64,000 nt of DNA from Octopus vulgaris (lineage: Eukaryota). The notes below the pieces were generated by a model, which ran no database searches, was not told where the DNA came from, and saw only the letters and a list, made by a program, of their open reading frames with translations. This document shows positions 2,402 through 48,911 of this stretch, one piece after another. A program made the translations under genes and the position numbers. The stretch spans positions 37,448,001 to 37,512,000 of the forward strand of contig OX597821.1 of NCBI GenBank assembly GCA_951406725.2, read 5' to 3'. Within the stretch, counting starts at the first letter, position 1. The number at the start of each line of letters is the position of its first letter.

Positions 2402-2480
2402 ATATATATGTAATTGTGATGTTCTATGTCCCCAATGTTTGTAACGTCCCCTCTATGTAGCCCCTAGTGGGTAATAAAGA
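2402..2480 (+). mobile_element. Isolated 3'-tail fragment of the ORF1-only retroelement
   Basis: atatatatgtaattgtgatgttctatgtccccaatg...gcccctagtgggtaataaaga is repeated almost exactly at 4081-4159 and 5770-5848. Confidence 0.85.
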
Positions 2481-2491
2481 AGAGAAAAGAC

Positions 2492-4160
2492 GAGAAATTC
2501 GGAACCCGCGTTGATTGTTGTGTTTTTTGCTCTCTGTGAAATTCGGTAAAAAGAAAAAAGAACAAAAAGTGAATGGTTGTTGTTGTAAAATTTTGAACGT
2601 AGTTGATGCGGTTTCGCGTTTCACTGGTTCTGCGCGTTACACTTTTTCGGTTCGGGAGGCCGTTTTTCGGTCTGAGGCGACTATGAGCCGCCTCCATCAA
2701 GCGGAGGAGATGGAAGGGAGAAATTACTCTGAAATTTCGACGGAAGTATCGACATCTGAGGAGGAGTTGGCGGTGAAAAAGATGGAAGGCACCTACGCAG
2801 GTGTAACGAAGAAGTCAACGGAAAGAGAGATAGACCTGGCTAAGTTGGCGGGCCTCCAGGAGTTTGTGAAGGAGGACGAGAACGGTGAAGTCGAGCTGCT
2901 GCCTCTAGTAGGGCGCGGAGACTGGTTCCATCGTAGAACCATTAAATATAAAGTATTTATGAATGGAGGTAGAAAGATGGAAGTAATTAACATGGAAGCA
3001 ATTGAAGAGGCTCTCAAGCAGACAGAAGAGGAAATTGTGTACATGACAAAGATTACAATACGGAACCATAACGGTGCAATTTAAAAGTGAAAAAGCAGCC
3101 AGGAATGTAGCAGCCAAGGTGGTGAGTACAGAAAAGATTTACTTGTTACCCTCGTATCTGAATAGGCGGACAACCAGAATTAGGGTGGAGGGAATACCTC
3201 CACACCTAGAGGGCGAATTAATAACGGCTGCGGTTATAAAAGGAAATGAAGATAAAGTGGACATCCTCCACGCCATTATGAAGTATGAAGGCGTGAGAGG
3301 TGCCACACTAGTTATGAACATTCAAACGGAGACGGATGTTATAGAGAGGATTACGGACAGCGTAGGAACTGGAAGTGTTGTTATGAGAGTGTGGGTGGAG
3401 GGTAGGGCACCCGGGTGCTGCGGGTGTGGCCAAAGGGGTCACATGGGGGCCTGCTGCCCTCCCCCACCGAGGGAAAAAGAAAAGGAGAGTGTTGAGGAAG
3501 CCTCAAGAGAGGGAGAAAATAAACAGAAACAGACAGAGAGGGAGGCGGCGGAGGGGGTGGGGGTGGGAGGGGTGGAAGGGGGGAGAAGGAAGGAGAGGGA
3601 GGGACTGTGCGGGGCCCCGGCCCGCCCCGACACCGCCCATACCCTTGGGGTCCCATCCTTCCCCTGCAGGCAGCGATTCCGCCCGCTCCCCGCCTGCTGG
3701 GGGGGGGGGGGCAGGGACAGACACACAGGACAAAGAAGGTCCCAAGACCCACTTTTTATGTGTTATACATGGGAAAGACATACAAAACGTTAAAAAATGG
3801 GTGTTAACCAAGTGGTACGAACACGAAGATTGTAGCTACACGGCTGTGGATAGTGATGATACGGGTATATTGGCGAGAAGGTTTGAGGAAGAGGGTGTGT
3901 GTTGGATGTCAGTGGAAATGAAAGATGAATGGATAGAGAGGGCTAAAAGAAAAACGAATGTTGTGATAGGTAAAAAAGGAATACTAATTGGAAATGGGTG
4001 AAGAAGGACAGGTAAGTGATGCTGGCGGATGGGGCCGTCGGTATCACTCTCATATATCATTTTCATATTCCATTTTGCTCATATATATGTAATTGTGATG
4101 TTCTATGTCCCCAATGTTTGTAACGCCCCCTCTATGTAGCCCCTAGTGGGTAATAAAGAA
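2492..4160 (+). mobile_element. ORF1-only (HAL1-like) non-autonomous non-LTR retroelement, copy 1 (A-to-G hypermutated)
   Basis: About 99% identical to 4172-5850 outside 3362-3738. It has a 5'UTR, ORF1 and LINE-like 3' tail but no endonuclease or RT. Confidence 0.85.
2710..4001 (+). pseudogene. Disrupted ORF1 (gag-like zinc-knuckle protein)
   Basis: Split across ORFs 2515-3084, 3074-3793 and 3426-4001. There is a 2-bp deletion near 3050 (gacaaagatt vs gacaaaaggatt) and indels in the G-rich block. The knuckle reads CCGCGQRGHMGACC instead of CYKCGQRGHIRAYC. Confidence 0.85.
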
Positions 4161-4171
4161 AAGAAAAGATG

Positions 4172-5850
4172 AGAAATTCGGAACCCGCGTTGATTGTTGT
4201 GTTTTTTGCTCTCTGTGAAATTCGGTAAAAATAAAAAAGAACAAAAAGTGAATGGTTGTTGTTGTGAAATTTTGAACGTAGTTGATGCGGTTTCGCGTTT
4301 CACTGGTTCTGCGCGTTACACTTTTTCGGTTCGGGAGGCCGTTTTTCGGTCTGAGGCGACTATGAGCCGCCTCCATCAAACGGAGGAGATGGAAGGGAGA
4401 AATTTCTCTGAAATTTCGACGGAAGTATCGACATCTGAGGAGGAGTTGGCGGTGAAAAAGATGGAAGGCACCTACGCAGGTGTAACGAAGAAGTCAATGG
4501 AAAGAGAGATAGACCTGGCTAAGTTGACGGGCCTCCAGGAGTTTGTGAAGGAGGACGAGAACGGAGAGATCGAGCTGCTGCCTCTAGTAGGGCGCGGAGA
4601 CTGGTTCCATCGTAGAACCATTAAATATAAAGTATTTATGAATGGAGGTAGAAAGATGGAAGTAATTAACATGGAAGCAATTGAAGAGGCTCTCAAGCAG
4701 ACAGGAGAGGAAATTGTGTACATGACAAAAGGATTACAATACGGAACCATAACGGTGCAATTTAAAAGTGGAAAAGCAGCCAGGAATGTAGCAGCCAAGG
4801 TGGTGAGTACAGAAAAGATTTACTTGTTACCCTCGTATCTGAATAGGCGGACAACCAGAATTAGGGTGGAGGGAATACCTCCACACCTAGAGGGCGAATT
4901 AATAACGGCTGCGGTTATAAAAGGAAATGAAGATAAAGTGGACATCCTCCACGCCATTATGAAGTATGAAGGCGTGAGAGGTGCCACACTAGTTATGAAC
5001 ATTCAAACGGAGGCGGATGTTATAGAGAGGATTACGGACAGCATAAAAACTGGAAATATTATTATGAGAGTGTGGGTGGAGGGTAGGGCGCCCAGGTGCT
5101 ACAAGTGTGGCCAAAGGGGTCACATAAGAGCCTACTGCCCTCCCCCACCAAAGGAAAAAGAAAAGGAAAGCGTTGAGGAAGCCTCAAGAGAGGAAGAAAA
5201 TAAACAGAAACAAACAGAGAAGGAAACGACAGAAGAAGAGGAGATGCAACAAGAGTGGGAAGAAGGGGGGAAAAAGAGAAAAAGAAAGAAAAAGAAAAAC
5301 TGTACGAAGCCCCAACCTACCCCGACACCACCCATAACCTTGGAGTCCCATCCTTCCCCTGCAAACAGCGATTCCACCCACTCCCCGCCTACAAGAAAAA
5401 CAAAAACAGACACACAGAGCAAAGAAAGTCCCAAGACCCACTTTTTATGTGTTATACATGGGAAAGACATACAAAACGTTAAAAAATGGGTGTTAACCAA
5501 GTGGTACGAACACGAAGATTGTAGCTACACGGCTGTGGATAGTGATGATACGGGTATATTGGCGAGAAGGTTTGAGGAAGAGGGTGTGTGTTGGAAGTCA
5601 GTGGAAATGAAAGATGAATGGATAGAGAGGGCTAAAAGAAAAACGAATGTTGTGATAGGTAAAAAAGGAATACTAATTGGAAATGGGTGAAGAAGGACAG
5701 GTAAGTGATGCTGGCGGATGGGGCCGTCGGTATCACTATCATATATCATTTTCATATTCCATTTTGCTCATATATATGTAATTGTGATGTTCTATGTCCC
5801 CAATGTTTGTAACGTCCCCTCTATGTAGCCCCTAGTGGGTAATAAAGAAA
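4172..5850 (+). mobile_element. ORF1-only (HAL1-like) non-autonomous non-LTR retroelement, copy 2 (intact)
   Basis: Single intact ORF, short 3'UTR, and tail tcccctctatgtagcccctagtgggtaataaagaaa shared with the LINE end at 38250-38288. Confidence 0.85.
4389..5690 (+). CDS. L1/Tx1-type ORF1 protein (~433 aa): putative RRM-like region, CX2CX4HX4C zinc knuckle, basic linker, C-terminal domain
   Basis: Open frame 4194-5690; ATG 4389 aligns with ATG 31543 of the homologue (alternative ATG 4362). Motifs YGTITVQF, LLPSYLNRRTTRIRVEGIPP and VWVEGRAPRCYKCGQRGHIRAYC match LINE ORF1 at 33318 (YGTVEVRF, LLPLYKGKRTSKITMNNIPP, VFVEGRKPRCFGCGKKGHVRAEC). Confidence 0.85.
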   Translation: MEGRNFSEISTEVSTSEEELAVKKMEGTYAGVTKKSMEREIDLAKLTGLQEFVKEDENGEIELLPLVGRGDWFHRRTIKYKVFMNGGRKMEVINMEAIEEALKQTGEEIVYMTKGLQYGTITVQFKSGKAARNVAAKVVSTEKIYLLPSYLNRRTTRIRVEGIPPHLEGELITAAVIKGNEDKVDILHAIMKYEGVRGATLVMNIQTEADVIERITDSIKTGNIIMRVWVEGRAPRCYKCGQRGHIRAYCPPPPKEKEKESVEEASREEENKQKQTEKETTEEEEMQQEWEEGGKKRKRKKKKNCTKPQPTPTPPITLESHPSPANSDSTHSPPTRKTKTDTQSKESPKTHFLCVIHGKDIQNVKKWVLTKWYEHEDCSYTAVDSDDTGILARRFEEEGVCWKSVEMKDEWIERAKRKTNVVIGKKGILIGNG

Positions 5851-6089
5851 AGGAAAGATGTCATCCGTGAGTTTATAGAGTTGGTGGTAATTGTTGAGAA
5901 GTTGTTATAGTTCGTTGAGAATTGTTTTGGATTGGTTACTGTTGTTGGCAGAGTATTTGAAAATACATCAAGCAGAGGCAGTTGGTGTCTTCCCCGTTCC
6001 ATGGTACACTATATCATACTGTATTAGTGCACGACACTAAGGTGACATATACAGAAACCATATTATATTTATTTATTTATTTATCGCGA

Positions 6090-21099: not shown

Positions 21100-21134
<35 letters not shown>

Positions 21135-21137
21135 TAT

Positions 21138-22080
21138 AAAAAAATAAATATAAGAGAATGGTCACTATGTGGCTCATTCTAGCACTAGCAAATCCAAAAG
21201 GTTTCAACCACAAAATACATGTTTCCCATGAAAGCCAGTACGATTGTTAGCTCACACGAACAGGGCAAATAAAAAATAACAAAAATACAGATTATTTTGG
21301 GACAATTGTTTCGCTATTAATGAATTAAATGTAATTTTACTTACAAAAAACCCACTTGTAGCTCCTCAGCCAAAACTATCTGGATGAAATCCAGAGCCAC
21401 ATAGTGACCATTCTCTTATATTTATTTTTGTATAAATATTATAATATATTATAAAATATTATAATAATCCAGGTTTCTCGAAGCACTGGGCCACTTGGTG
21501 TTGAATAGATATACTATTAAATTAGTATCTAATTCTCTCACCCTTATTAATTAATTATAATTATGCTACATTTATTTCTAAATGTAGTATTTGTTTCCGT
21601 GAAAGTTTGGCGCGCTGTTGGTAGGGGCATTTGAATTATAACGTCGGATGTAATCAATTGAACCACACGTGTATTTATCGTTATGGTAAAATCTGGCGTG
21701 TGATTGAGTGGATTTCATCCAGATAGTTTTGGCTGAGGAGCTACAAGTGGGTTTTTTGTAAGTAAAATTACATTTAATTCATTAATAGCGAAACAATTGT
21801 CCCAAAATAATCTGTATTTTTGTTATTTTTTATTTGCCCTGTTCGTGTGAGCTAACAATCGTACTGGCTTTCATGGGAAACATGTATTTTTGTGGTTGAA
21901 ACCTTTTGGATTTGCTAGTGCTAGAATGAGCCACATAGTGACCATTCTCTTATATTTATTTTTGTATAAATATTATAATATATTATAAAATATTATAATA
22001 ATCCAGGTTTCTCGAAGCACTGGGCCACTTGGTGTTGAATAGATATACTATTAAATTAGTATCTAATTCTCTCACCCTTA

Positions 22081-22087
<7 letters not shown>
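21138..22087 (+). mobile_element. Penelope-like element remnant (inverted plus direct pLTR arrangement)
   Basis: 21138-21393 is the reverse complement of 21709-21964; 21394-21558 is directly repeated at 21929-22087. It contains a hammerhead and is flanked by (TA)n. Confidence 0.75.
21727..21807 (+). ncRNA. Type I hammerhead ribozyme (minimal palindromic stem III); mirror copy on minus strand at ~21295-21375
   Basis: ttttgg-CTGAGGA-gcta...tagc-GAAA-caattg-TC-ccaaaa: stem I ttttgg/ccaaaa, stem II gcta/tagc, GUC cleavage triplet. Confidence 0.75.
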
Positions 22088-22136
<49 letters not shown>

Positions 22137-25150: not shown

Positions 25151-25373
25151 GAGGCGGCGAGCTGGCAGAAGCGTTAGCACGCCGGGCGAAATGCTTAGCA
25201 GTATTTCGTCTACGTTCTGAGTTCAAATTCCGCCGAGGTCGACTTTGCCTTTCATCCTCTCGGGGTCGATAAATAAAGTACCAGTTTCGACTGGGTCGAT
25301 GTAATCGACTTAATCCGTTTGTCTGTCCTTGTTTCTCCCCTCTATGTTTAGCCCTTGTGGGTAGCAAAAGAAA
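25151..25373 (+). mobile_element. tRNA-headed SINE with Nin/Deu-like core and Tx1-LINE-like 3' tail
   Basis: A-box-like tggcagaagcgttag, B-box gagttcaaattcc, core gactttgcctttcatcctctcggggtcgataaataaagtaccag, tail tcccctctatgtttagcccttgtgggtagcaaaagaaa. Confidence 0.75.
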
Positions 25374-27972: not shown

Positions 27973-30681
27973 TGTTGTTGGCATCCTTTTTGTCTCGGGA
28001 GACAATGGAGTTGCGCATAAAATAATCTTGTCCGGCTTTTACATTTCATGTCCTAATACATCTCTTGCTGTGGCTGTGTAGTCCTAGCCGGGACAAACAC
28101 TCCCTCTGGCAGGTGCCGTAAATGTAGCGAAGACTTTGCCTGACTGGTTGTAATGTCATAGTTTCTTGTTGACGTCTTTTCTTGTCTTTCCATTTCTCCT
28201 TTCTCACTATGTCACTCCTTTGTGTTCCCTCTTTCACGGTACGTCGCCAATCTCCACGGTTGCTGGCAACTGCTTCCCAGTTGGTAATATTGATGTTGCA
28301 GGCATTCATGTCCCTTTTGCAAACATCCTTGTATCGTAAGAACGGTCTTCCCACAGACCTAGTGCCCCTAGCAAGCTCTCCGTTGAGTATGTCCTTGGGG
28401 ATTCTGCCATCTTCCATACGGCTAACATGTCCAAGCCATCTCATACGTCTTTGTGTGAAGAGTGCAAACATGCTTGGTATTCCTGCTTGCTTGAGGACAT
28501 CTTTGTTAGGGACATGATTCTGCCATTTGATGCGATGGATTTTCCGGAGACAGCGCAGGTGAAAGATATTTAGGCGACGTATGGCGTCGTATGGCGTGTG
28601 TATGGCGTCAAAGTCATACAGTAGAGTGCTAAGTACACATGCCTGGTAAATCTTCATTTTTGTGGTCTTGGTCAGCTTATTGTTGTCCCATGCGCGTTTG
28701 GTGAGTTGGGCCATCACAGCAGCTGCCTTGCCAATGCGTATATTGAGCTCAGCATCAAGGGATAGGTTGTAGGTGACGGTAGAGCCAAGATAGGTAAACT
28801 TCTCCACCTCCTATACTCTGTGGTCTCCAATATGTATGTTTGGGATGTCCGATGTAGCCTGACCCATGATGTTGGTCTTCTTGAGGCTGATAACTAAGCC
28901 AAAGTTGCCAAATGCTTGCTCAAAACAGTTGCTGTGCCTTCGTAGGGCTTCTTCTGTGTGTGATACCAGAGCGGCATCATCAGCAAATAGCATCTCCTTG
29001 ATCAGGATGCTTCTGAAATTTTGATCTTGGCACGCAGACGCGAGAGATTGAACAGTTACCCATCACTTCTACTGTGCAGAAACACTCCATCATCTGATGT
29101 CTCAAAGGCATGTGACAGCAGCAGCGAGAAGAAGATGCCAAATAATGTAGGAGCAAGGACACAACCTTGCTCTACCCCATTTTTTATTTGGAAGGCGGCT
29201 GATGTTGAACCATTGTGCTGTATGGTGCCTTGCATATTAGCATGGAATGATTTGATGATCCTCAGCAGCTTTGGTGGACATCCGATTTTTTGGAGCAGGA
29301 TGAAGAGGCCTTTTCTACTTACCAAGTCAAAGCCCTTTGTCAGATCAATGAAGGCCATATATAATGGCATGTTCTGCTCTCTGGACTTCTGAAGTTGGCG
29401 TATGGAGAATATCATGTCAATAATTGATCTGCTTCTAAAGCCACACTGCGATTCTGGATAAATTCGAGAAGCAATTAGTTGCAGCCTGGACAGGATAATG
29501 CAAGCAGAGGCCTTTCCAACTGTGCTTAGAAGAGATCTTCCACGGTAATTGTTACAATCATCACGGTCACTTTTATTTTTGTAAAGCGTAATGATGTTAG
29601 CATCCCGCATATTCTGAGGGACTGTACCCTCTTACCTGCACTAACACAGAAGCTCATGAATGTGCCGAAGCAGGATGGTGTTTTTGCCGGTTTTGATGAT
29701 CTCTAAGGGGATGCCGTCTTTTCCCGGAGCCTTGTTATTTGCTAGGGAGTCAATAGATTTGGCGAGCTCTGCTATAGATGGCAGACTGTCAAGTTCACGC
29801 ATGACTGGCAAGATCTTGACACCCTCGATTGCAGCCTCAGCTACCGTGGTCTCTCGTGAGTAGAGATCTTGGTAGTACTCCATCCATCTATCCATTTGCT
29901 TGCTTTGGTCCCTGATGAGATCTCCAGTAGTTGATTTCAGAGGGGCTGAGGTATTTGCGGATGGACCGAGGGCCTTCTTCAAACCGGCATACATCCCACG
30001 GGTGTCGCCACTGTCAGCAGCTGACTGGATACTCTGACAGATTTCCTTTCAATACCCATTTGCATAGCGTCTGGCAGTCAGTTGGGTTTTATTTCTTGCC
30101 TTTCTGAGTTCTTCGTGTGACTTTGTAGAAGAACCACTCTTGTATTGCATCAGAGCTGTACGCTTTGCTTCGATAACTGGTTCCAGCTCTGAGAGCCCAG
30201 CACTGAACAAAATCTGGGTTTTACCTTTCTCTCATTCCGAAAGTATCTATTGATGTGGTATACAAAGCTTCCCTGATATAATTCCACCTACTTTCAGCAG
30301 AGGAGGTTGGGCAGCTACTGAGGGCAACCTTGATAAAAACAGCAAAACATTGTCGCAGTGTAGGGTTCGAGGTTCTGGCAGTGTTAATGCGTGGTTGGCT
30401 AATTTTCTTGGAGTAATGGACTTTTTAGGCAGAATCCTCACCCTTCTTATTAGTGAATGATCTGTCTCACAATCCGCGCTACGGGTCAGTTGAACAGAAT
30501 TCAGAAAGGATCTTCGTGTAATGATGAGATCCAACTGATGCCAGTGGTGAGATCTTGGATGTCTCCAAGATGCCTTGTGGGATGTCTTGTTGGGAAAGAA
30601 TGTGTTGGTGATGCACGGGTTATGGTATGTGCAAAATTCAAGTAGTCTCTGGCCATTGTCATTCATGTTGCCAATACTAAA
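27973..30681 (-). mobile_element. 5'-truncated RTE-clade LINE (frameshifted APE-RT ORF)
   Basis: Motifs HWHQLDLII/SADCETDH (endonuclease end), KAPGKDGIP, NYRGRSLLS, ESQCGFR, FIDLTKGFD, QGCVLAPTLF, LFADDAAL, RWLGHVSRMEDGRIPK. The 3' end is gtctcccgagac...gatgcc(aac)n; a 78-bp duplication flanks it. Confidence 0.9.
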
Positions 30682-30749
30682 ACACATACACTTACATATA
30701 TACATACATATATATACGATTGATTTGTTTCAGTTCCTGTCCACGAAAT

Positions 30750-30821
<72 letters not shown>

Positions 30822-31364
30822 ACACACACACACAAAGATAAATTGATAGATACAACTGAGTGGGCAAACAAAAATGTGAGACACTGCGTAGAGCTTTTTA
30901 AAATTTTGATAAGCCTGGTACTTATTCTATCAGTTTCTTCTTGTGAAACCAGTATGTTATGGGGATGTAAATAAACGAACACCAGTTGTGAAGCAGTGAT
31001 GAGGGAAAAACACAGAGACACACACACAGACTTACATACACAGATATATATACGATTGATTTCTTTCAGTTTCTGTCTACAAAATCCACTGACAAGGCTT
31101 TGGTTGGTCTGAGGCTACAGTAGAAGACACATGCCAAGTTACCACACAGTGAGACTGAACTGAGAACCATGTGTTTTGGAACCATAAGAATACTTATGCA
31201 TAAATCTAAAATCTTAAATAATTCCTTTGTTATTGTAGTATATATTAATAAAAAATGGAATATTCCCAAAATTGCATGATGAACTAAATGATTTTAATTT
31301 CTTATTTAAACGTGAAAAAAATCTTGAAAAAAATCTGATACAAGGATGTGATATAATGAAACAG

Positions 31365-33058
31365 CAATTTTGAGTTCGGTCGTGTTTTTTTACGCTCGTA
31401 AAATTCGGTAAAAAAGATCAGAGAGAGTTGTTGTTGTTGTGGAGATTTTGAACGGCGTTGGAGCGGTTTCGCGTTCAGCTGGTTCTGCGCGTTACACTTT
31501 TTCTGTTTTGACGGCCGTTTTCGGCCTGTCAAGCGGGAGGAGATGGATGACCACTCCCTAGTGGAGGAGTCGGAGGAAGAATGGATATTTGAGAGCTTGT
31601 CAGAGACATCGAACTCTGAAGACGAGCAAATCGGTGATGTAAATAATGTGGAGATAAAAAACAGGAAAACGTACGCAGGAGTTGCAAAAAAGAAGACGGA
31701 ACAGGAAAAAGAAATAAACCTAGAAAAATTACCAGGTTTCCAGAGGTATATGAGGAAGGACAGCGGCGAGGTGGAACTGGAACCACCACCAAAGAGAAAG
31801 GAATGGTACAATAAGAGGACCATAATTTACAGGGTGTTCGTGAACGAAAGAAAGAAAATAGAGATCGTAAACATGGAATGGATAGAGGAGGCCCTGAGAA
31901 GATCGGAGGAGGAAATCATTTTTCTGATTCGAGGATCGAAGTACGGTACTGTAGTGGTACATTTTAAAAGTGAGACTGCAGCGAGGAAGATGGCGGTGAA
32001 GGCGGTGAAGTCAGAAAAGGTAACACTTTTACCTATGTACTTGAATAGAAGGATTACACGAGTAAGGGTGGAGGGAGTGCCACCAAACGTTGAGGCTGAA
32101 TGGATTGTGGCGGCTGTGATCAGCGGCCACGAGGAGAAAGTGGATATTCTCCATGCCTCGGTCAGGACCGAGGGCTGGAGAGGCGTAACAGTGGAGCTGA
32201 ACGTGCAGGCGGAGAGCGAGGTACTGGTGGACCTGGCGGAGAACATTAAATTGGGAGACGTGATTATGAGAGTGTGGGTGGAGGGCAGAGCTCCACGTTG
32301 TTACAAGTGAGGCCTGAGGGGCCACATAAGAGCCTTCTGCCCTCCCCCACCAAGAGAAAAGGAAATCGTTGAGGAAGCTCCAAAAGAGGAGGCCCCAAAA
32401 AGGAAGAAATTAAAGAGAAGCAGACGGAAAGGGAAACGACAGAGGAGGAGGAGATGCAAAAAGAGTGTGAGGAGGGCAGAAAGAAGAGAAAAGGAAAGAA
32501 AAGGAAAAACTGTGCGAAGCCCCAACCCACCCCAACACCACCCACACCCTTGGAGACCCATCCTGCCCCTGCAAACAGCAATCCCACCCACTCCCCGCCT
32601 ACAAGAAAAACGAAAACAGACACACAGAACATACAAAGGCCCCAGTCCTACTTTTTATGTGTTGTGAGAAAGGGGGATACAGAGAACGCAAGAAGGCTTT
32701 TTGAAGACAATGTATGGCAGGAGTATGAGGACGGAAGCTATGCGGTGTTCGATTTTGAACTTATGGGCTCTTTGATGAGCAAATGTAATGAACTACGTAT
32801 AAATTGTTTTTCAGCATATATGAAGGATGATATGATAGAGAGGTATGAGAGAGAAATGAAAGGTGAGGTGAAAGACTTTGGAATCGTGATAGGAAACGGA
32901 AAGGTAAGTGATGCTGGAGGAGGGGGCCGTTAGCATCGCTTTCATGTTACCATTTTTTCATTTTAACATTCATTTAATCATAATTTTAATCGCATTGTTT
33001 TATGTCCCCCATGTTTTGTAATGTTCCCTCTTCGTGGCCCCTAGTGGGTAATAAAGAA
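31365..33058 (+). mobile_element. ORF1-only retroelement, divergent subfamily (copy 3)
   Basis: 5'UTR homologous to 4200-4390 (ggtttcgcgtt...ctggttctgcgcgttacactttttc), same tail gcccctagtgggtaataaagaaa, candidate TSD atataatgaaacag (31351-31364) / atataatgacactg (33059-33072). Confidence 0.85.
31543..32933 (+). pseudogene. ORF1 homologue with nonsense codon in the zinc knuckle and a frameshift
   Basis: ORFs 31543-32310 and 32454-32933; CYK*GLRGHIRAFC (TGA at 32308-32310); frameshift in the A-run near 32400. Confidence 0.85.
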
Positions 33059-33317
33059 ATATAATGACACTGATTCATATTCATCGATACTCAAAAACTG
33101 AACTTTCGTCATAGTGTATAGTGAGTTATTATATTTTTGCCTTGTGTATATTTTCTCCGTTGTGATCTACTGTGTGTCTAGCTGTCTTTCTGTATTGTTG
33201 TACAACTATTGAAGTCGGCCTTCGTGCGAGGGCTTCGTGTTGGTGTTCCCCCTCCGTGGGGGAAAAACTATCATTATCTTGGTTGTGCCAAGGGCTTGTT
33301 AAAGCCAGTTATCGGAG

Positions 33318-34638
33318 ATGGAATCCCCCATCTCTTATTCACCTGTGACTAGTGATGCAGGATCACCGGCGGTGTCGCCAAAGAAAAAAGAGGCGGGGTC
33401 GCCAAAGAAAAAAGATATTCCAGCACCAGCGAAAAAATTTTCGGAAGTAGCTGGCAAGAAAATTAAAAAAATTAATCTGGAAAACCTAAAGAAACATGCG
33501 GACTGTGTGTCAAAAGAGGGCACGGAAGTAACCGTGGCTTCAAACGCCCAAAAACAGGAGGAAATTTCAAATAGAAGAATAATTTATAAGACCTTCAATA
33601 CAACAAGCAGATCAATACAAAAAATAGAGGAGAAAAAAATCGAAAATTGCTTAAAGCCGATAATGGATAAAATCACATATATCAATCGAGGGAAGAAATA
33701 CGGCACAGTGGAGGTGAGATTCACATCAGAGGAGGTAGCGAAGAAGCTATCCATGGAACCAATAAAAGCGGAGGATATTGTTCTCCTACCCCTGTATAAA
33801 GGCAAAAGAACATCAAAGATCACAATGAATAATATTCCGCCAGAAGCGGATGCCGAAGTTCTGGTGGCAGCAGTTATGGTAGGCCTGGAGGAAAAAATAA
33901 ACATCCTCCAGGCCACTGTAGAGGAGGAAGAATTCTGGAAAGGGCAACGGATAATAATAGCCATCCAGGCAGAAATACAAACCCTGGAGGAGATTCCAGA
34001 GACTCTAAAGATAAGCGAAGATGAGAGAGTCACAGTCTTCGTAGAGGGCAGAAAGCCGAGGTGCTTCGGCTGCGGTAAGAAAGGGCATGTAAGGGCAGAA
34101 TGCCAACCCCAACCCAAACCGCAGGAAGCAGCTCAGCCAAGTGGAAAAGCAGAAGAGGTGTCATCAGAAACAGCGCTGGTCGGCCCAGGAGGGACGGCTG
34201 AAGGTGTGGAGGTGACAGAGGCAGCGGAACCAACGGCGGAGGAAAAAAAGAGCGAGGAAACGAAAAAGGAGGAGGGGTGGTCAAAAATCACTAGAAAAAA
34301 AAGAAAAACTGAAACCACCCCTCCCTAAACCAAAAAAAAAAAAAAGAGAGTCGTTGAACTCATTTATGGCCGTTAAGGCCACGAACAATAGACTCGGTAA
34401 TGTGTTGGCAGCGATGGCCAAAGTAGAAAAAATAGGGAGGAAAAATGACTATGTATTGTACAGAATAGGCCGGAAGGATTACGGACGGATAAAGTCCGAA
34501 TTTTTTCATGACGTAGGCCCGCTCAGAATGGATATAACATCTCCATATATATTCGAGGGCCTGCGTCAGACTCCCCCACGAGGCCCAGAAAAAGAGACAA
34601 AAAAAGAAGAAAACGAAAAAACCGAACCACTGATATAA
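33318..34638 (+). pseudogene. LINE ORF1 (zinc knuckle CFGCGKKGHVRAEC), one frameshift near 34320
   Basis: ORF 33318-34328 continues in the +1 frame (PKPKKKKRESLNSFMAVK...) to 34638, 8 nt before the ORF2 ATG. Confidence 0.8.
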
Positions 34639-34646
34639 GGTAAGTA

Positions 34647-37600
34647 ATGGATTACATTTATGTTGGTTGTTTGAATGTGCGCGGCCTGGGAGCAGGCGGG
34701 AAGCAAGGTCGCTTCCTGCATGATATCAGGTCGCGTAATTTAGATGTTATTGTTGCTACAGAAACCTGGTTAGAGGGGCCAAGAGGTCTTCTCCCGCTGT
34801 TTGACGGCTACGAGAGTTTTTTCTCTCCTGGCAGTCCTACAGGCGAGAGAGGGGTGTTGGTCCTATTAAAAAGAAACCGGGTTTCTGAGAAAAAGTTAAT
34901 TTTTGCAGATCCAGAAGGTAGGCTGGTCGTCATGGATTTGACGTTCAGTAATGGTAAAGTTATCAGACTGGTTGCAATTTACGCACCCAACAGTAAAAAA
35001 GGGCAAAGTGATTATTTTCGTGATCTAGAAAAATTTCTTGGTACTTCGCATTCATTAGTGGTGCTAGGAGACTTTAACACAATTTGCAAAGCGGATGTAG
35101 ATTGTGTTGGCTCGTGTCCAGATAGGAGAGGTAACAGTGGCTTCATGGAACTGCTAAGCCGCTTTGAGCTAGCAGATCCGTATAGGCTGGAATTTCCGAA
35201 CGCTCCATTGTGGACATGGTCAAACAGCGACGGATCTTCCAGGTCATATATAGATAGAATTCTAATTAGAAAAGTAGACAGTAAAATAGCTAAGTGTCCA
35301 CAGTTTTACCCGATCAGCTACAGTGATCATAAAATGGTCACTTGTAAGCTTGACATAGATAAGGTTAGAAATAGAGGATCCGGTTACTGGAAACTTAATA
35401 CGTCCCTTTTGGCGATTAAGGAGTACAAAGACCGGATTAGGAACATAATTCAGAGGGCACTATCCGGTACCATCATTAATAACAAATGGTGGTATGCCCT
35501 CAAACGAGCCATCAAGTTTGAGTCTATTAGATATAGCATAGGAGTAGTGGCTAGAGAGGCTAGAGGGGATAATACTCTAGTTAAGGAATTAGAGGAAGCC
35601 ATGAAAACTGGCTCTGCGGCTCAGGTGGCGTCCAAGAGACTGGTGTTAAACCAGCACCTCGAGGCCAAACACATGGGCTGCATTGTCAGGGCTAGAATCC
35701 GTCATATGGGATGTGAAGGAATCAACGCCGTGAGATGGGCCCGAGTGGTGGAAGCTCAGCATGGTAACGGTGCCACGATTCGATCTTTGACGAACCAACA
35801 AGGTGAGTTGATAAACGAACCCGAGGAGATGTGTGAGGCCTTTCAGGAGCACTTCGCTCAGCTTTTCGGTGAGTGCGGCGGACTGGATAGGAGGAGGGCC
35901 TTTACGGACCTACTCGACGGGCTGCCGCGCTTATCGGGGCGAGATGCGGAGGGCTGTGAAGGGCCAATCACGCCTGGGGAGGTGTTTGAGGCAATGGCGG
36001 ACTGCGGCGCGGGTAAGGCGCCGGGTTTGGATGGTCTACCCTATGAGTTATATAAGAGTATGCCAGACTTGTTCGGGCACCAACTGGCGGAGGTCTATGC
36101 GAACTGGCAGCAGAACGGGCTCATACCCAGATCTGTGCGCCGGGGAGTAGTGACTCTCGTCAGAAAGGACCCGAGCAAGGGGAGTGCATTGATAATTTCA
36201 GGCCCATCACTCTGCTAAACACAGAGTTGAAGATTTTGGCCAAAGTGTTATCGAAAAGATTGGCGCGTGTCGCGGATGGTCTGATCGGAGGGGCACAGAC
36301 ATGTGCCGTTCCGGGCAGATCCATTCAGGATAATCTCCATCTAATGCGGTACACTATAGAGGGGTTTAATAATGATTCTGGCAAGGGTGGGGTACTGGTC
36401 CATTTAGACCAATCTAAAGCCTTTGATAGGGTCGACCATCGTTACCTGGTATCTGCCCTGGCACAGTTCGGGCTGAGCCTTGGCTTCCTCAGGTGGATTA
36501 TCCAAATGTATGATAACATCGACTCGGTAGTTCGGGTGAACGGCTTCTTGTCGAAGCCGTTCAAAATCAAACGCTCGGTTCGTCAAGGGTGTCCGCTCTC
36601 CCCGCTTTTGTACGTGATGGCCCTAGAGCCATTACTGCGAAAACTGAGCGGCATCCCGAGACAGCCGGGTAATGGAAAATCAGTGTCGGCGTACGCGGAT
36701 GACATCACCATCATCGTAACCGAAATGGACCACCTATGTAAAGTAGGCAAGGCCATAGAGGTTTACGAGACGGTGACAGGAGCAAAAGTTAATCGCGAAA
36801 AGTCAGTCGGCTTGCAACTCGGCACCTGGAGAGGCAAGTCGATGCCTCCTGACAGCGTCGTGGGACGTTGGACGGAGGGTCCGATTAAACTGCTAGAGGT
36901 CTGGTTCGGTCCAGACCTCCAAATAGAGAAGAATTGGGGCGAGGTAACGAGCAAGGTGGCTGCAGTAGCCAAGACCTGGTCTTGGCGGTGGCTATCCTTG
37001 AAAGGGAGGGCGGAGGTGGCCAATGTGTTTATCGCATCGGTTATCACCTACCGCCTTTCCGTCGTTCCTTGCCCCGATTCGTGCTTGACCAAGTTGGAAA
37101 GACAGCTCTTCTACTTCTTGTGGAAGGGTAGGAAACCACTCGTGAAACGCTCTACTTGCTGTCAACAACCGTTAAAGGGTGGGCTAGGGATGCCTTGGCT
37201 GATGATGCGCAGACATGCGCTGAGGTTAAGACATCTGTGGCTCTACCTGGATGGTAAACGGGTGTGGTCTCCGTTAGCAAAACTGATGTTTCCCAAGTTC
37301 ACTAGTTTCGGTGGACGGGAAACCTGGCTGAATCGTAGATCGAAACTCGGTACTTGGTACACGGAGTGTCGCAAGGCTCTCCTGCTATTCCGTCGCTCGG
37401 GCAACGCCTGCGGTGGGGGTTCCACCACATTCTTCTATAGAGGGTTGGTAGAGGCGGAATGTGAAGATACCTTGGGGGAAACCCTAGGTCTCGACGATAA
37501 TCAGCTGGCCAGTCTGTTCCGACGTACGTTCAAGCCGAGGACACTGGACAACTTCCAGAAGTCTCTGGCATGGCAATGCTACAGAGGAGCTCTACCTGTT

Positions 37601-38045
37601 CGGGATAAACTCGCAAGGCACGGTGGCCGAGACAGTCCGATATGTCCAAGATGCGGGCGGGATAGGGAAACCGTCCCGCACGCTATTGTTCATTGTCCGG
37701 ACGTGTCTGAGGTGTGGGTTTATGCCGAACAGCTGTTGTCAGGTACACGAAGAGTACAGCTGTCGACTGAGTCGATTACAAAAATTGACCCACCGGATTT
37801 CCTCGTGAATGAAGGTAAGTTTCTGTTTTCTCGTTGTAGTAGCAATTGCGAAAGAGGTGATATGGAAGACGAGAGTGAAAGGTTTACAGGCAGGCAAGTT
37901 CATCTCTGGCCCTGGTTTGATGAATTATTTCATCTTTCACCTGAAAAGGAAGATAGGGCTGGAGAGAATATGCCTGACTAGGAGAGTGTATGAAGAACGA
38001 TGGAAAGATGTGGCACGGAAGTTGCGAGTGAAAGATACAACATAA
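34647..38045 (+). pseudogene. LINE ORF2 (APE endonuclease + reverse transcriptase), two frameshifts
   Basis: LNVRGL, TETW, IYAPN, LGDFN, SYIDRI, SDH, YWKLN, KAPGLDGLP; LDQSKAFDRVDH, VRQGCPLSPLLY, AYADDI; CPRC...ETVPHAIVHC. Frameshifts near 36190 and 37825. Confidence 0.9.
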
Positions 38046-38486
38046 ATGGTAATACCAAGCGCAACCAAAAGTATCAGTGGGGAGGCGGGGCTCGTGGGGT
38101 CCGAGCTAAACCCGCACCCACTCCACCTGTAATGTCTTCCGGTCTGTTTCATCATTCGATTTTGTGTATATTCTTGTAATTTCATGTTATTTTTAAATCC
38201 GATTTTTTGTAAAAACCATCCGTATGTCTGACCCCACATCAGATTGTATTGTCCCCTCTATGTTCGCCCCTTGTGGGTAGTAATAAAATCAACTGAATAC
38301 TCTTCATGTGGTGCCTTACTGCTTTCTGCTGGATTTTACCTCGAGAAAGGAACCCTGAGGAAGGAGGGCTGAATTTCGAATACTTCGTACAACAAACGGC
38401 TGCAGGTTAGGAAAAAATTTTAATCGCCTCTTTCAATTTAGGTTTTTATTTTTCATGTTTATATTCGTATTTCATTGTTTTGTTTA

Positions 38487-38840
38487 TATTGGGTTGTCCG
38501 GAAAGTTCGTTCTGATTTTTAAAGGAAAGTACATGGTCACTAAATACTTGCCATTACATTTTTAATGAACCAAATCTGAACCATTTCGTTGCACAATACG
38601 TCTCCATCTTACCTTTACCTTAAAAATACCCTCTTCCCAGAATTGGGGTAGTTTCAAGGCAAATAATTCATCAAGGTATCTTTTTACGTCATCTAAGGAA
38701 TTGAAATTTTCTCCATTAAGACTATTCTGCAGAGACCTGAATAAGTGGAAATCCGAAGGAGTAATATCTGGTGAATATGGAGGGTGGGGTAAGTCACCCC
38801 AGCCAGGCTGCAGCAATTTTTGTCTGGTTCTCAAAGCATC
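38487..38840 (-). mobile_element. mariner (DD34D-type) 3' fragment
   Basis: LPHPPYSPDITPSDFHLFRSLQN motif; TIR-like tattgggttgtccggaaagttcgt at 38487. Confidence 0.8.
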
Positions 38841-39329
38841 AAATGCCGATAATGAATTTTTCTCATCTTTTAATTTAAAGGGTTACAGAATTAACACAGG
38901 TTATTGGAACATAAACCTTCCTCCACGAAAAGATAGATTAAACTGTGCTCCAAATGGAGGTGTAGTCAAATCCTATTTTATGGACTCAAACATTTTTATC
39001 ATGAAATTCTTAATATAAATATGTGGATATTCGTATGGAATAATACCTCATGTGCTACATCTGAATTTTCTTGTCTGAATGTTTTAAGACAAATATCCGA
39101 AATTTTTTATCGTATACCACATTTTATTAATACTTGTCTCATATACGGAGACAAAAATGTTGTACTATATACTGCAGGTTATCTCCATTAAAATTATATT
39201 TAGCATTAAAATTCTTCAAGTTATATAAAAATGGTTATTGTCTGCATCATTAGAAAGCGAAATAAATTTTGCATAAGGTGTAAAAGATAAAAATAATTTG
39301 TACGGTGTTAGTAACAAGATATTTTGTAA

Positions 39330-43119: not shown

Positions 43120-43300
43120 TTGCAATTTCGACCAATTGTATTTTGTCCTCCCTCTGATGTAGAAGTGTGGCTACAATCCAGCCTACCTCTACTTCTGCGG
43201 GGATATCTTTCATAGTCGCACCAAGACACATTTCGATGGTGCTTTTCTCCAGGTGTTCAAATCTTCTTGTTTTCTCAACATTGTATGCTTTATAGACAAT
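43120..43300 (-). pseudogene. Internally deleted ORF1 fragment of another Tx1-like family
   Basis: IVYKAYNVEKTRRFEHLEKSTIEMCL|ATMKDIPAEVEVGWIVATLLHQREDKIQLVE aligns to IIYKTFNTTSRSIQKIEEKKIENCL and ITMNNIPPEADAEVLVAAVMVGLEEKINILQ. Confidence 0.6.
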
Positions 43301-45907
43301 TGTATATAGGTATGTATATACATGCAAATTGTATATAGGTATGTATATACATGCAAATTGCATATAGGAATGTAAATATATACAAATTGCGTATAGGTAT
43401 GTAAATATATGCAAATTGCATATAGGTATGTAAATATATACAAATTGCATATATGTATGTAAATATATACAAACTGCATATATGCATGTAAATATATACA
43501 AACCGTATAAATGCATGTAAATATATACAAATTATATATATGCATACAAATATATACAAATTATATATATGCATACAAATTATATATATGTATATATGTA
43601 TACAAATTATATATATGTATATAAACGTATACAAATTATATATATGTATATGAACGTACACAAATTATATACATGTATATAAACGTACACAAATTATATA
43701 TATGTATATAAACGTATATAAATTATATATTTGTATATAAATATAAACAAAATATATATAATTATATGTATAATTTGTATATATTTATATACATATATAT
43801 AAATATATACAAATTATATATATGTATATAAATATATACAAATTATATATTTGTATATAAATATATACAAATTATATATTTGTATATAAATATATACAAA
43901 TTATATATATGTATATGAATATATAAAAATTATATATATGTATATGAATATATACAAATTATACATATGTATATGAATATATATACAAATTACATATATG
44001 TATATGAAGATATACAAATTACATATATGTATATGAAGATATACAAATTACATATATGTATATGAAGATATACGAATTACATATATGTATATGAAGATAT
44101 ACAAATTACATATATGTATATGAATATATACAAATTACATATATGTATATGAAGATATACAAATTACATATATGTATATGAAGATATACAAATTACATAT
44201 ATGTATATGAAGATATACGAATTACATATATGTATATGAAGATATACAAATTACATATATGTATATGAAAATATGCAAATTACATATATGTATATGAAGA
44301 TATACAAATTATATATATGCATACAAATTATATATATGTATATATGTATACAAATTATATATATGTATATAAATGTATACAAATTATATATACGTATATA
44401 AACGTATACAAATTATATATATGTATATAAACGTATACAAATTATATATACGTATATAAACGTATACAAATTGTATATTTGTATATAAATATATACAAAA
44501 TATATATAATTATAAATATAATTAGTATATATTTATATACATATATATAAATATATACAAATTATTTATATGTATATGGATATATACAAATTATATATAT
44601 ATGTATATGAATATATACAAATTATTTATATGTATATGAATATATACAGATTATATATATGTATATGAATATATACAGATTATGTATATGAATATATACA
44701 GATTATGTATATGAATATATACAGATTATATATATGAATATATACAGATTATATATATGAATATATACAGATTATGTATATGAATATATACAGATTATAT
44801 ATATGAATATATACAGATTATATATATGTATATGAAGATATACAGATTATATATATGCATATGAAGATATACAGATTACATATATGCATATGAAGATATA
44901 CAGATTACATATATGCATATGAAGATATACAGATTACATATATGCATATGAAGATATACAAATTACATATATGCATATGAAGATATACAAATTACATATA
45001 TGCATATGAAGATATACAAATTACATATATGCATATGAAGATATACAAATTACATATATGCATATGAAGATATACAAATTACATATATGCGTATGAATAT
45101 ATACAATTTATATATGCGTATGAATATATACAAGTTATATATATGTATATGAATATATACAAATTATATATATGTACACAAATATATACAAATTATATAT
45201 ATGTACACAAATATATACAAATTATATATATGCATATGTATATATACAAATTATATATATGCATATGTATATATACAAATTATATATATGCATATGTATA
45301 TATACAAATTATATATATGCATATGTATATATACAAATTACATATATGTATATGAATATATACAATTTATATATGTGTATGAATATATACAAGTTATATA
45401 TATGTATATGAATATATGCAAATTATATATATGTATATGAATATATACAAATTATATATATGTATATGAATATATACAAATTATATATATGTATATGAAT
45501 ATATACAAATTATATATATGTATATGAATATATACAAATTATATATATGTATATGAATATATACAAATTATATATATGTATATGAATATATACAAATTAT
45601 ATATATGTATATGAATATATACAAATTATATATATGTATATGAATATATACAAATTATATATATGTATATGAATATATACAAATTATATATATGTATATA
45701 TACAAATTATATATATGTATATATACAAATTATATATATGTATATATACAAATTATATATATGTATATATACAAATTATATATATGTATATATACAAATT
45801 ATATATATGTATATGAATATATACAAATTATATATATGAATATATACAAATTATATATATGAATATATACAAATTATATATATGTACACAAATTATATAT
45901 ATGTATA

Positions 45908-46346: not shown

Positions 46347-48680
46347 CTTTGATACTTTGATAGGTTTCGGCCATTATTGGCCCAGGCCATGTCTAACTTA
46401 ATAGCACCACCTGGTGAAGTCTTTCAAGTCAGAATTTGGGCACTATGGCCCACTCAAGTAGAGAGTTATTGTTTACAGAGACATATCCGGGTGTAGAGGG
46501 TTTATCCGGGATTTCTTGAAGGAATCTGTCCAAAGACTTCTTGAACCCTATAGGGTCAGTTTCTGTTTTAATGTGTTTTGGTGTAATGTTAAAGAGAGCG
46601 GGGCCAATTGAGGTGAAATAATTGTGCCGTATTGTTGTTATGAGATGAGAGTGCGATTTTTGTTTTGGGCGGATGGCACGGGGCCCAAGCCTTAGATGTA
46701 CCTTAAAGGTGATGCCAACATCATTTGGGCAATGCTGATGGAATATTTTCCACATCATGCAGATGATGTAGCGCTCACGACGACGTTGGAGAGAATAGAG
46801 TTTTAGCTTTTCTAGTCGACCCCAATAGTCGAGGCCTGTCATGCCATCTATCTTTTTTGCGATTACCCTTTGAGGTGCTTCCACTTTTATGATACCTTGT
46901 ATTGTGTGGGGAGACCACAGTGGACAACAGTATTCAAGGTGGGGTCGGGCAAAGGTGGAGAAGAGAAGGATAATGGTGTGGATATCTCTCGACTGGAAAG
47001 TTCTGAGAATCCAGGAACACATTCTGCGGGCCATGTCAACTTTGGTGTTTATATGAGTGGCCCAGCTTATGTTGTTGTCCACAATTACTCCCAGGTCTCT
47101 GATGTTGTTGGACGCCGCGAGAGTTTCACCTGAAGGAAGGGAGTATGGGAGTTTCAGGGCATCCTCTTTTCCAAAGTGGATTAGCTCAAATTTATCCTCG
47201 TTCAGTAGCATATTGTTTTTTTCTGCCCATTGGATAACAGCCAGTAGATCTGACTGAAGGCATGTCCGGTCACTCGCCTCATTTATGACCTTCTGTAGCT
47301 TGGAGTCATCTGCAAAGATTTTTATGTTGCTGTGCTTGATGATGTCATTAATGTCATTAATGTAAATGATGAAAAGAAGTGGGCCCAACACAGTGCCTTG
47401 CGGAACGCCACTACTGACTTTGGCTGGGCTTGATTTTACCCCTTCAACTACAACATGTTGAGATCTGTCTGTCAGGAAACACTTGATCCATTTCAGTAAC
47501 TTTCCAGAGACACCAATGTTGGATAGTTTTTTCAATAGGATCTTGTGATCGACCCTGTCGAAGGCCTTACTGAAATCAAGGTAGATGACATCGGTGTTGG
47601 AGCCCTCTCCCAAAGCTCTCAAAATGTCCTCAAAGTGATGCAGGAGCTGCGTTAGGCAGTCCCTTCCATTACGGAACCCATGTTGGTTGGAGATCAGCCG
47701 TCTGTTGCTTTCCAGAAATTGGGTTATTCGAGATCTCACCACCCTCTCAAATACCTTGATGATATGAGAGGTGAGTGAGATCGGACGGTAATTCACTGCA
47801 AGGGACTTGTTTTCCTTTTTGAAAACTGGGACAACAGACTGGGACAGAAGGTTTTTTGGAATATAGCCAGCATCCAGTGAGTTTCTCCACAGATTAGCAA
47901 GGGGAGATGCAAGTTGGTGTCGACACACCTTCAGGACACAAGCAGGGAACCTATCGGGGCCTACTGCTGAATTGTGTTTTATTTCGTTTATCGCCGCTAA
48001 GACATCAGGGGCACTAAACGTTATGTCCGATATAGTGTGTTGGGGGTTGACATCACTGATACAGCCCAGATCGGCCATATCAGGATTGCTGAAAACAGAG
48101 CAGTATTGTTTCTGCAGTATCTCGGCCATGGATTTGGCATTATCTTGGAGAGTGCCAGTTTCGTCAATTAGAGGGCCTACAGTGGAGACAGTGACCCTGC
48201 GTTTCCTCGCAAATGAAAAGAACACTTTGGGGTTGAGTTTGATTTTTTCAATGGCCCACTTCTCCTCAGCTGATCTTTGGTTATTGATGAGGGTCTTCAT
48301 GCATTGTTGGAGGTTATATTTTTGGGATTCAAGCAGTGCGATAGCCGTCGAATGTGTGTGTTGCTGTTGGCAGTACTTTAGTTTGTTAATTTTTTTGTTT
48401 GTTCTTTTTATTTTTCTGATAATGGTTTTTCTGTTTTGGGGGATTCTGCACTTTTTGTTCACAGGTCTTGGTGGGGAGTGTTTTGCACATATGTCTGTGA
48501 CGGTGTCTACAAAGATCTGCCAAGATGTTTTATGGTTGGTGGAGATGTGTGTATGTGTAAAGGACCAGTCAACATGTGATAGCTCGTTCCTGATTGCATC
48601 CCAGTTGGCATTATGGAGATCCATGTTGTCAAATGGGTGGGCTGGAGGAAGGTCACTAGGATTAGCTTTCGGCTGGTGGA
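46347..48680 (-). mobile_element. 5'-truncated CR1/L2-group LINE, young
   Basis: Uninterrupted RT frame, ~80-bp 3'UTR ending in (tcaaagta)2, inserted in the minisatellite. Confidence 0.9.
46429..48680 (-). CDS. Reverse transcriptase ORF2, partial (no endonuclease domain, no native start)
   Basis: SAVGPDRFP, NYRPISLTS, QHGFR, YLDFSKAFDRVDH, SGVPQGTVLGPLLF, IFADDSKL, RDLGV, LYSLQRRRER. The listed Met at 48696 comes from the flanking satellite. Confidence 0.8.
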
Positions 48681-48911
48681 ATATAAACGTATACAAATTA
48701 TATATATGTATATAAACGTATACAAATTATATATATGTATATAAACGTATACAAATTATATATATGTATATAAACGTATACAAATTATATATATGTATAT
48801 AAACGTATACAAATTATATATATGTATATAAATGTATACAAATTATTTATATGTATATAAATGTATACAAATTATTTATATGTATATAAATGTATACAAA
48901 TTATATATATT

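Follow-up and report, generated by a model that had tools for sequence, protein, structure and literature searches.

Two subfamilies of a non-autonomous retroelement in Octopus vulgaris share a sharply bounded segment of coding DNA, which they probably swapped by recombination, to judge from the sequence. At nearly the same place another copy carries a dense tract of A>G changes, very probably left by a hyper-edited RNA. A causal link from the exchange to the limits of the editing is plausible; it concerns one event, and the match was noticed post hoc. All positions are those of the window, the whole 64,000-nucleotide stretch of repeat-rich animal DNA that was analysed.

The three copies and the adjoining LINE

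Comparison of the window with itself revealed an element of about 1.7 kb that is present three times.

2402..2491, + strand: 3' tail piece of another copy (tail0), before copy 1; 97.8% identical to the copy 2 tail
2492..4171, + strand: copy 1, ORF1-only non-LTR element, delimited by alignment to copy 2
4172..5860, + strand: copy 2, intact ORF1-only element with an ORF of 442 aa at 4362-5690
31360..33058, + strand: copy 3, a decayed member of the second subfamily with a stop codon in the knuckle (32308-32310) and a frameshift near 32395
33103..38290, + strand: autonomous-type LINE with Pfam domains Exo_endo_phos, RVT_1 and zf-RVT
5790..5850, + strand: 3' tail motif common to copy 2, copy 3 and the autonomous LINE; 54/61 identical to copy 3

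Judged by their sequence, copies 1-3 are ORF1-only non-LTR retroelements of the non-autonomous LINE type. No endonuclease or reverse transcriptase (RT) was found in them by ORF and Pfam domain search. Tail0 (90 nt), copy 1 and copy 2 form a head-to-tail array (2402-5860), each unit of which ends in ...AATAAAGAA(A/G)-AAAGA(C/T)G, and no clear target-site duplication was found flanking this array. Copy 3 has a 9-bp target-site duplication (31351-31359 / 33059-33067). Copies 1 and 2 differ by about 1% outside the A>G tract of copy 1 (K2P distance 0.014 and 0.009); the ORF of copy 1 carries a 2-nt deletion near 3050 and is further disrupted by indels within the tract. The array may be a read-through multimer RNA copied with truncation at the 5' end, or the element may have inserted repeatedly at its own 3' end; if it came from one RNA, editing hit just one of two near-identical blocks. 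An LTR element with 90-bp LTRs was also considered and rejected: the 5' end of copy 3 lacks the repeat, which is the 3' tail shared with the LINE.

The LINE consists of ORF1 (33303-34328), an endonuclease (34644-36218) and an RT/zf-RVT part (36056-37981), the last two split by a frameshift, and has a candidate 7-bp target-site duplication (33096-33102 / 38291-38297). From its architecture it may belong to the L1/Tx1 clade; the RT relatives that were found carried no clade label. It likely represents the family of the partner that mobilises copies 1-3. The copy 2 tail motif matches LINE positions 38244-38283 with 85% identity over 40 nt (a longer local alignment was also obtained), and the ORF1 protein (ORF1p) of copy 2 is 34% identical to that of the LINE (E 5e-38).

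Downstream of ORF1 each of the three copies has the motif AGGTAAGT(G/A)ATG (4011, 5700 and 32903), in which a splice-donor consensus is joined to ATG. The motif also stands at the ORF1/ORF2 junction of the LINE (34639), and in the copies it is likely what is left of such a junction. Copy 3 and the LINE lie about 35 nt apart (33059-33102), each with its own candidate duplication, a possible sign of insertion preference. The 3' tail motif of this LINE type recurs at 25329-25367 with no ORF1 match upstream, perhaps as a SINE or a short truncated copy.

Elsewhere in the window are two more decayed RT-coding LINEs on the minus strand (28046-30729 and 46429-48726) and a short minus-strand ORF (38562-38882) with a likeness to the C-terminus of a mariner-type transposase. 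A long AT-rich microsatellite/minisatellite array (GC 15-21%) occupies 43291-45907. At 21130-22093 a 265-nt inverted repeat (98.9%; 21130-21393 / 21709-21973) adjoins a 166-nt direct repeat and represents a recent inversion-duplication and a potential long dsRNA. A 2.5-kb tandem duplication at 57271-62321 (99.96%) is either very recent or an assembly artefact.

AlphaFold, Foldseek and Pfam gave copy 2 ORF1p a layout of two RRM-like domains, a CCHC knuckle, a mostly low-confidence linker and a C-terminal part.

4509..5081, + strand: two RRM-like domains, about residues 50-240; AlphaFold pLDDT mostly 86-96
5148..5438, + strand: linker, acidic, then basic/Pro-Thr; pLDDT <50 over most of residues 302-368

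The best Foldseek matches of the RRM region were the tandem-RRM proteins SFPQ/NONO, Raver1 and U2AF65 (E 1e-5 to 3e-4), and the zinc knuckle (residues 246-259) matched Pfam zf-CCHC with E 0.0025, short of the curated cut-off. As modelled, copy 2 ORF1p is a type I LINE ORF1 (RRM-RRM-CCHC), a class defined in PMC4120745. The named relatives of the ORF are all from Octopus: A0A0L8G4Z0 of O. bimaculoides, LOC118767527 of O. sinensis, and an O. vulgaris protein with a short stretch that is 92% identical. The O. sinensis protein, here P0002, served as third lineage; 106 of 150 proteins passed the family filter, among which P0002 alone matched the Pro-Thr part and covers the linker well.

The shared block and the A>G tract

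Copies 2 and 3 have the following stretches in common besides the 3' tail motif.

5061..5453, + strand: shared block in copy 2 (last RRM strand, CCHC knuckle and linker), from alignment to copy 3
32263..32663, + strand: shared block in copy 3, from alignment to copy 2
4253..4345, + strand: 5' UTR island; 78/92 identical, 0/11 A's changed in copy 1

The initial annotation had put the identity of copies 2 and 3 at 55-60% in the flanking coding DNA and at 80-90% in a block lying at 32263-32663 in copy 3. These copy 3 positions were correct, and we measured 86% inside 5062-5453 (333/386 aligned bases; 82% with gap columns), against 60% upstream (420/696) and 54% downstream (125/231). The K2P distance was 0.14 in the block and 0.55 and 0.74 in the flanks. 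Uniform divergence had been named as the result that would speak against the proposal; the alignment shows instead a sharp-edged block, best fitted at 5061-5453, with a log-likelihood ratio (LLR) of 51.6 compared with a maximum of 10.4 in 100 permutations. The 2-log-unit ranges of its edges are 5058-5066 and 5448-5456, and inside it the alignment is ambiguous at 5226-5300. It is the sole coding block of this kind, as claimed; it is not the one conserved block of the element, since three non-coding islands are equally conserved (4253-4345, 78/92; 5697-5740, 36/44; 5790-5850, 54/61).

Identity within the block extends to synonymous sites. Third codon positions agree at 103/129 sites (80%) inside and at 102/232 and 34/77 (44%) outside, four-fold sites at 26/36 inside versus 20/45 outside (p=0.014). 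Identical residues are encoded by identical codons in 72/93 cases in the block versus 51/111 and 13/23 in the flanks (p=9e-6). When only third positions were fitted, the left edge moved to 5123 (range 5102-5132), because conservation of the first ~60 nt is chiefly at the protein level: the final RRM strand and the zinc knuckle are encoded here, six synonymous differences follow one another, and the product is 59-71% identical to distant lineages. In the linker the three codon positions have diverged alike (86/91/84% identity), which is the pattern to be expected when DNA under weak constraint descends from a common ancestor that is recent.

The changes in copy 1 are confined almost wholly to one tract.

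3362..3738 (copy 2 positions 5043-5427), + strand: A>G hyper-mutated tract of copy 1; 69/155 A's read G

Outside these 385 nt only 3/421 A's of copy 2 read G in copy 1 (LLR 92), and the edges fall within 5034-5043 on the left and 5405-5436 on the right. At 54 of the 69 changed sites copy 3 reads A, which makes copy 1 the altered one. At two of the three outside sites copy 3 also reads G, so that copy 2 has probably changed there. As a result of the changes in the tract, two residues of the knuckle loop differ and the reading frame is shifted, and the tract contains indels and a run of 13 G's (G13). Differences other than A>G number seven in the tract and are not clearly denser there than outside.

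Sense-strand A>G changes in a non-LTR element are what reverse transcription of inosine-containing RNA is expected to leave. By 5' neighbour, the fractions changed were U 8/13, A 40/75, C 10/29 and G 11/38, with a depletion of 5' G (11/38 vs 58/117, p=0.038) and an excess of 5' A/U (48/88 vs 21/67, p=0.005); by 3' neighbour there was no clear bias (A 29/75, C 13/26, G 22/43, U 5/11). Depletion of 5' G is a shared ADAR motif, and a 3' A preference is described for invertebrates (PMC5625713). The copy 1 tract very probably represents hyper-edited RNA, its inosines read as G, that was reverse-transcribed into the genome. Octopus is reported to be among the most hyper-edited animals (PMC5625713), and coleoids to have much of their editing in repeats (PMC9068888). 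No other A>G-skewed cluster was found among 51 repeat alignments of the window, microsatellite arrays excluded.

Overlap of tract and block

The tract had been placed at about 5043-5428, nearly the limits of the block. The position holds (5043-5427) and the overlap is high (Jaccard 0.89; p=0.034 with fixed length, p=0.003 with both ends random), but the edge ranges of tract and block are disjoint at both ends. The tract is displaced about 20 nt upstream, each end lying 18-26 nt from the block edge, and five edits fall at 5043-5058, before the block, where copies 2 and 3 match at 12/21 positions. With the synonymous block 5123-5453 the overlap is 0.74 (p=0.08 with fixed length or 0.016 with random ends).

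We compared the editing with the predicted pairing of copy 2 and antisense copy 3 RNA. The predicted duplex is most stable over the block, the only place where a long duplex is predicted. Editing has a trough at 5140-5219 (5/41 vs 64/114 in the rest of the tract), and both copy 2/copy 3 indels lie in this trough. A facing C was edited at 11/17 sites, A paired with U at 54/127 and A facing A at 1/6; the excess at A:C is not significant (p=0.12) and may reflect shared ancestry. The correlation of editing with local pairing had a rho of 0.15-0.41, with circular-shift p of 0.008-0.20, below 0.05 in 5/20 settings. In the three other islands (82-89% identity; 92, 44 and 61 nt) 0/36 A's were edited; the 5' UTR island pairs per base as well as much of the block, yet is unedited. 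No inverted or block-only copies were found in the 64-kb window (blastn, word 7). The idea of the initial annotation that antisense RNA of a related subfamily delimits the ADAR target is thus weakly favoured by the pattern within the tract, and runs against the unedited islands, the offset edges, the absence of an inverted copy from the window and the fact that only one copy is edited.

The account that we rank first, tentatively, is that the block was swapped and that copy 1 is a hyper-edited retrocopy whose duplex was set by an inverted copy of the other subfamily. It starts from the block as found, with its sharp edges and raised synonymous identity. These would probably go back to a double crossover, most simply by template switching of the LINE reverse transcriptase, with one breakpoint within the zinc knuckle and the other where the C-terminal domain begins. 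The sense-strand A>G tract of copy 1, with its ADAR-type context, would in all likelihood have arisen when inosines were read as G in target-primed reverse transcription, the copy then being fixed in the germ line. Granted these steps, the chances are a little short of even that the source transcript read through an element of the copy 3 type in opposite orientation, or encountered one; the swapped block alone would then have given a long duplex (~390 bp), and editing would have been confined there. The element itself would make ORF1p and borrow ORF2p via the shared 3' tail, as HAL1 or HeT-A.

Second in rank, and on the whole unlikely, is that exchange and editing are both real but unrelated, the partner at the source locus having been an inverted fragment of copy 1's own subfamily or any partial copy, with limits that lie near the block by chance. 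It fits a single event with a chance overlap of 0.003-0.08 before the post-hoc choice is allowed for, an edge offset of ~20 nt by which editing enters poorly shared sequence, and shared islands that stayed unedited; hyper-edited clusters moreover are reported usually to have an inverted partner nearby (PMC4365171, PMC5625713). It does less well with the closeness of both tract ends to the block edges, and a near-identical partner does not predict a trough on the two cross-subfamily indels.

Another explanation is a common physical cause in the RNA, for which the predicted structure is relevant.

5071..5148 (copy 3: 32273-32350), + strand: zinc-knuckle codons, predicted to fold into an RNA hairpin of -44 kcal/mol in both copies

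This hairpin of ~80 nt was matched in stability by 0/500 synonymous shuffles in both copies and is absent from the LINE ORF1. The linker RNA is U-poor and the least structured part of the element, with an unpaired probability of 0.73 (5148-5427) versus 0.42-0.54 elsewhere. An unstructured linker beside a hairpin could be a hot spot for template jumps and antisense nucleation, which would have produced both the old exchange and the tract limits, e.g. by a switch onto edited RNA and back. The strong left-edge hairpin in both subfamilies suits such a hot spot, which also accounts for the unedited islands. We nevertheless consider it improbable: the right edge has no conserved hairpin, three other windows of the copy 2 ORF reach an equally low folding z (-3.0 to -3.5), and the differences other than A>G are not clearly denser inside the tract. 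An RNA-level role for the whole block, as had been suggested, was not supported: its folding z is weak (-1.92 and -0.26 in copies 2 and 3), the two folds differ, and Rfam gave no match for it. An intramolecular duplex as ADAR substrate was rejected, as the longest helix touching the block in the copy 2 fold has 10 bp, and so was a G-quadruplex motif, the C-run pattern of copies 1 and 3 being absent from copy 2.

Comparison with P0002 bears on whether the block was exchanged at all. In the RRM part the three proteins are about equally distant (copy 2-copy 3 49/90, copy 2-P0002 49/90, copy 3-P0002 46/90), whereas in the linker copies 2 and 3 stand apart (68/96 vs 43/94 and 43/94). Informative shared sites in the same order number 16:16:13 in the RRM part and 33:8:8 in the linker (Fisher p=0.0036, at protein level and with one third lineage). 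Linker similarity specific to this pair favours exchange over family-wide constraint. There was no supported conflict of topology: the RRM tree leaves copy 2, copy 3 and P0002 unresolved, and the block tree weakly joins copy 3 and P0002 (80/85), under long branches. That the linker should evolve fastest, as had been expected, holds for its acidic half (68% between copies 2 and 3, 32-34% to P0002); the basic/Pro-Thr half is 54-55% identical to P0002, equal to the RRM part, which indicates that this region is not free to drift.

The block may also have been kept by selection without exchange, for the sake of the knuckle and the Pro-Thr motif or of an RNA or antisense element. Every lineage conserves the knuckle (59-93%), P0002 retains the Pro-Thr motif and P0008 a faint trace of it (29-31%), the knuckle hairpin is more stable than its synonymous shuffles, and minus-strand ORFs of 127-130 codons cross the block in copies 2 and 3. 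Such open minus-strand frames are, however, expected in A-rich, T-poor sequence, and the raised identity at four-fold sites, the pair-specific acidic half and the block's lack of a shared fold or Rfam match go against selection, which we regard as an improbable sole cause. Exchange between the subfamilies, proposed in the initial annotation, is supported by the sharp breakpoints, the raised synonymous identity and the pair-specific jump relative to the third lineage, and recombination between co-active L1 families is known from mouse, rat and horse (PMC5872511).

It is very improbable that errors of assembly or sequencing, or mutagenesis other than by ADAR, produced the tract, its coincidence with the block then having no RNA basis: for this speak its indels and G13 run, the documented motif-bound G/A base-calling errors (PMC2873906) and the possibility that the 99.96% tandem duplication at 57271-62321 is itself an assembly artefact, but the documented error is G>A in AGA/AGG (PMC2873906) and not A>G as polarised by copy 3 (54/69), every sequence context is affected, with the 5' preference typical of ADAR, and none of the other pairs in the 51 repeat alignments has such a cluster.

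Known systems and meaning for octopus retroelements

Like HAL1, HeT-A and Ag-Sponge, the octopus elements have one ORF homologous to a LINE ORF1, no ORF2 and a 3' tail shared with a LINE, and copy 3 has a target-site duplication. HeT-A forms head-to-tail arrays, as the octopus copies do. These three are known ORF1-encoding non-autonomous LINEs, HAL1 standing for half-L1 (PMC5786205, PMC5753468). Unlike the ORF1p of mammalian L1 and HAL1, with coiled-coil, RRM and CTD (type II), that of the octopus element is type I (PMC4120745), and its host is a mollusc. HAL1 in the strict sense was rejected, given two RRM folds, a CCHC knuckle and relatives in Octopus; the octopus ORF1-only elements likely originated independently of HAL1.

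Like L1 family recombination (PMC5872511) and ORF1 domain shuffling (PMC4120745), the exchange would involve a mosaic with sharp breakpoints and simultaneously active lineages. Unlike L1 recombinants, it would be an internal double crossover of ~330-390 nt within ORF1, between non-autonomous lineages ~52% identical in protein.

The tract itself, like edited inverted repeats such as Alu pairs and coleoid repeats, packs A>G changes densely into a few hundred nt, with 5' G depleted (PMC4365171, PMC5625713, PMC9068888). Unlike Alu-pair editing, it lies in genomic DNA, and its hypothetical partner is another subfamily with one segment in common. A>G hypermutated retroviral proviruses are a closer parallel than APOBEC-edited elements. 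With the APOBEC DNA-edited LTR elements of vertebrate genomes the octopus copy has in common a hypermutated retrocopy that was fixed with its ORF destroyed; the APOBEC changes, however, are G>A from cDNA deamination in LTR elements, with invertebrates depleted, whereas the octopus changes are A>G, from RNA, in a non-LTR element (PMC4866542).

Taken singly, neither this type of element nor L1-type recombination nor the editing of inverted repeats by ADAR is new. In the full-text literature that was searched, neither an ADAR-hyper-edited non-LTR retrocopy in genomic DNA nor octopus ORF1-only elements were found. A 2016 review described the role of ADAR editing in Alu subfamily evolution as undetermined at that time (PMC4982230), and a squid and octopus genome paper called the role of ADAR in shaping cephalopod retroelements unexplored (PMC9068888).

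A role of ADAR in mutating or shaping retroelement families has so far been assumed and not demonstrated. From a hyper-edited retrocopy in genomic DNA it follows that editing took place in germ-line cells or in the early embryo, and the tract records how far one RNA duplex extended. Should tracts of this kind prove to be concentrated on recombined segments, an assembly alone would suffice to test which RNAs pair with each other, and LINE mosaicism would be tied to host defence. A further reading, which we find doubtful, is that ADAR attack in the germ line has left a fossil record in octopus genomes and that swapped segments act as cross-family targeting cassettes. If that is true, antisense RNA of one subfamily would pair with the mRNA of the other over exactly the swapped module, and ADAR would wreck the knuckle and linker of ORF1 in an RNA that still retrotransposes.
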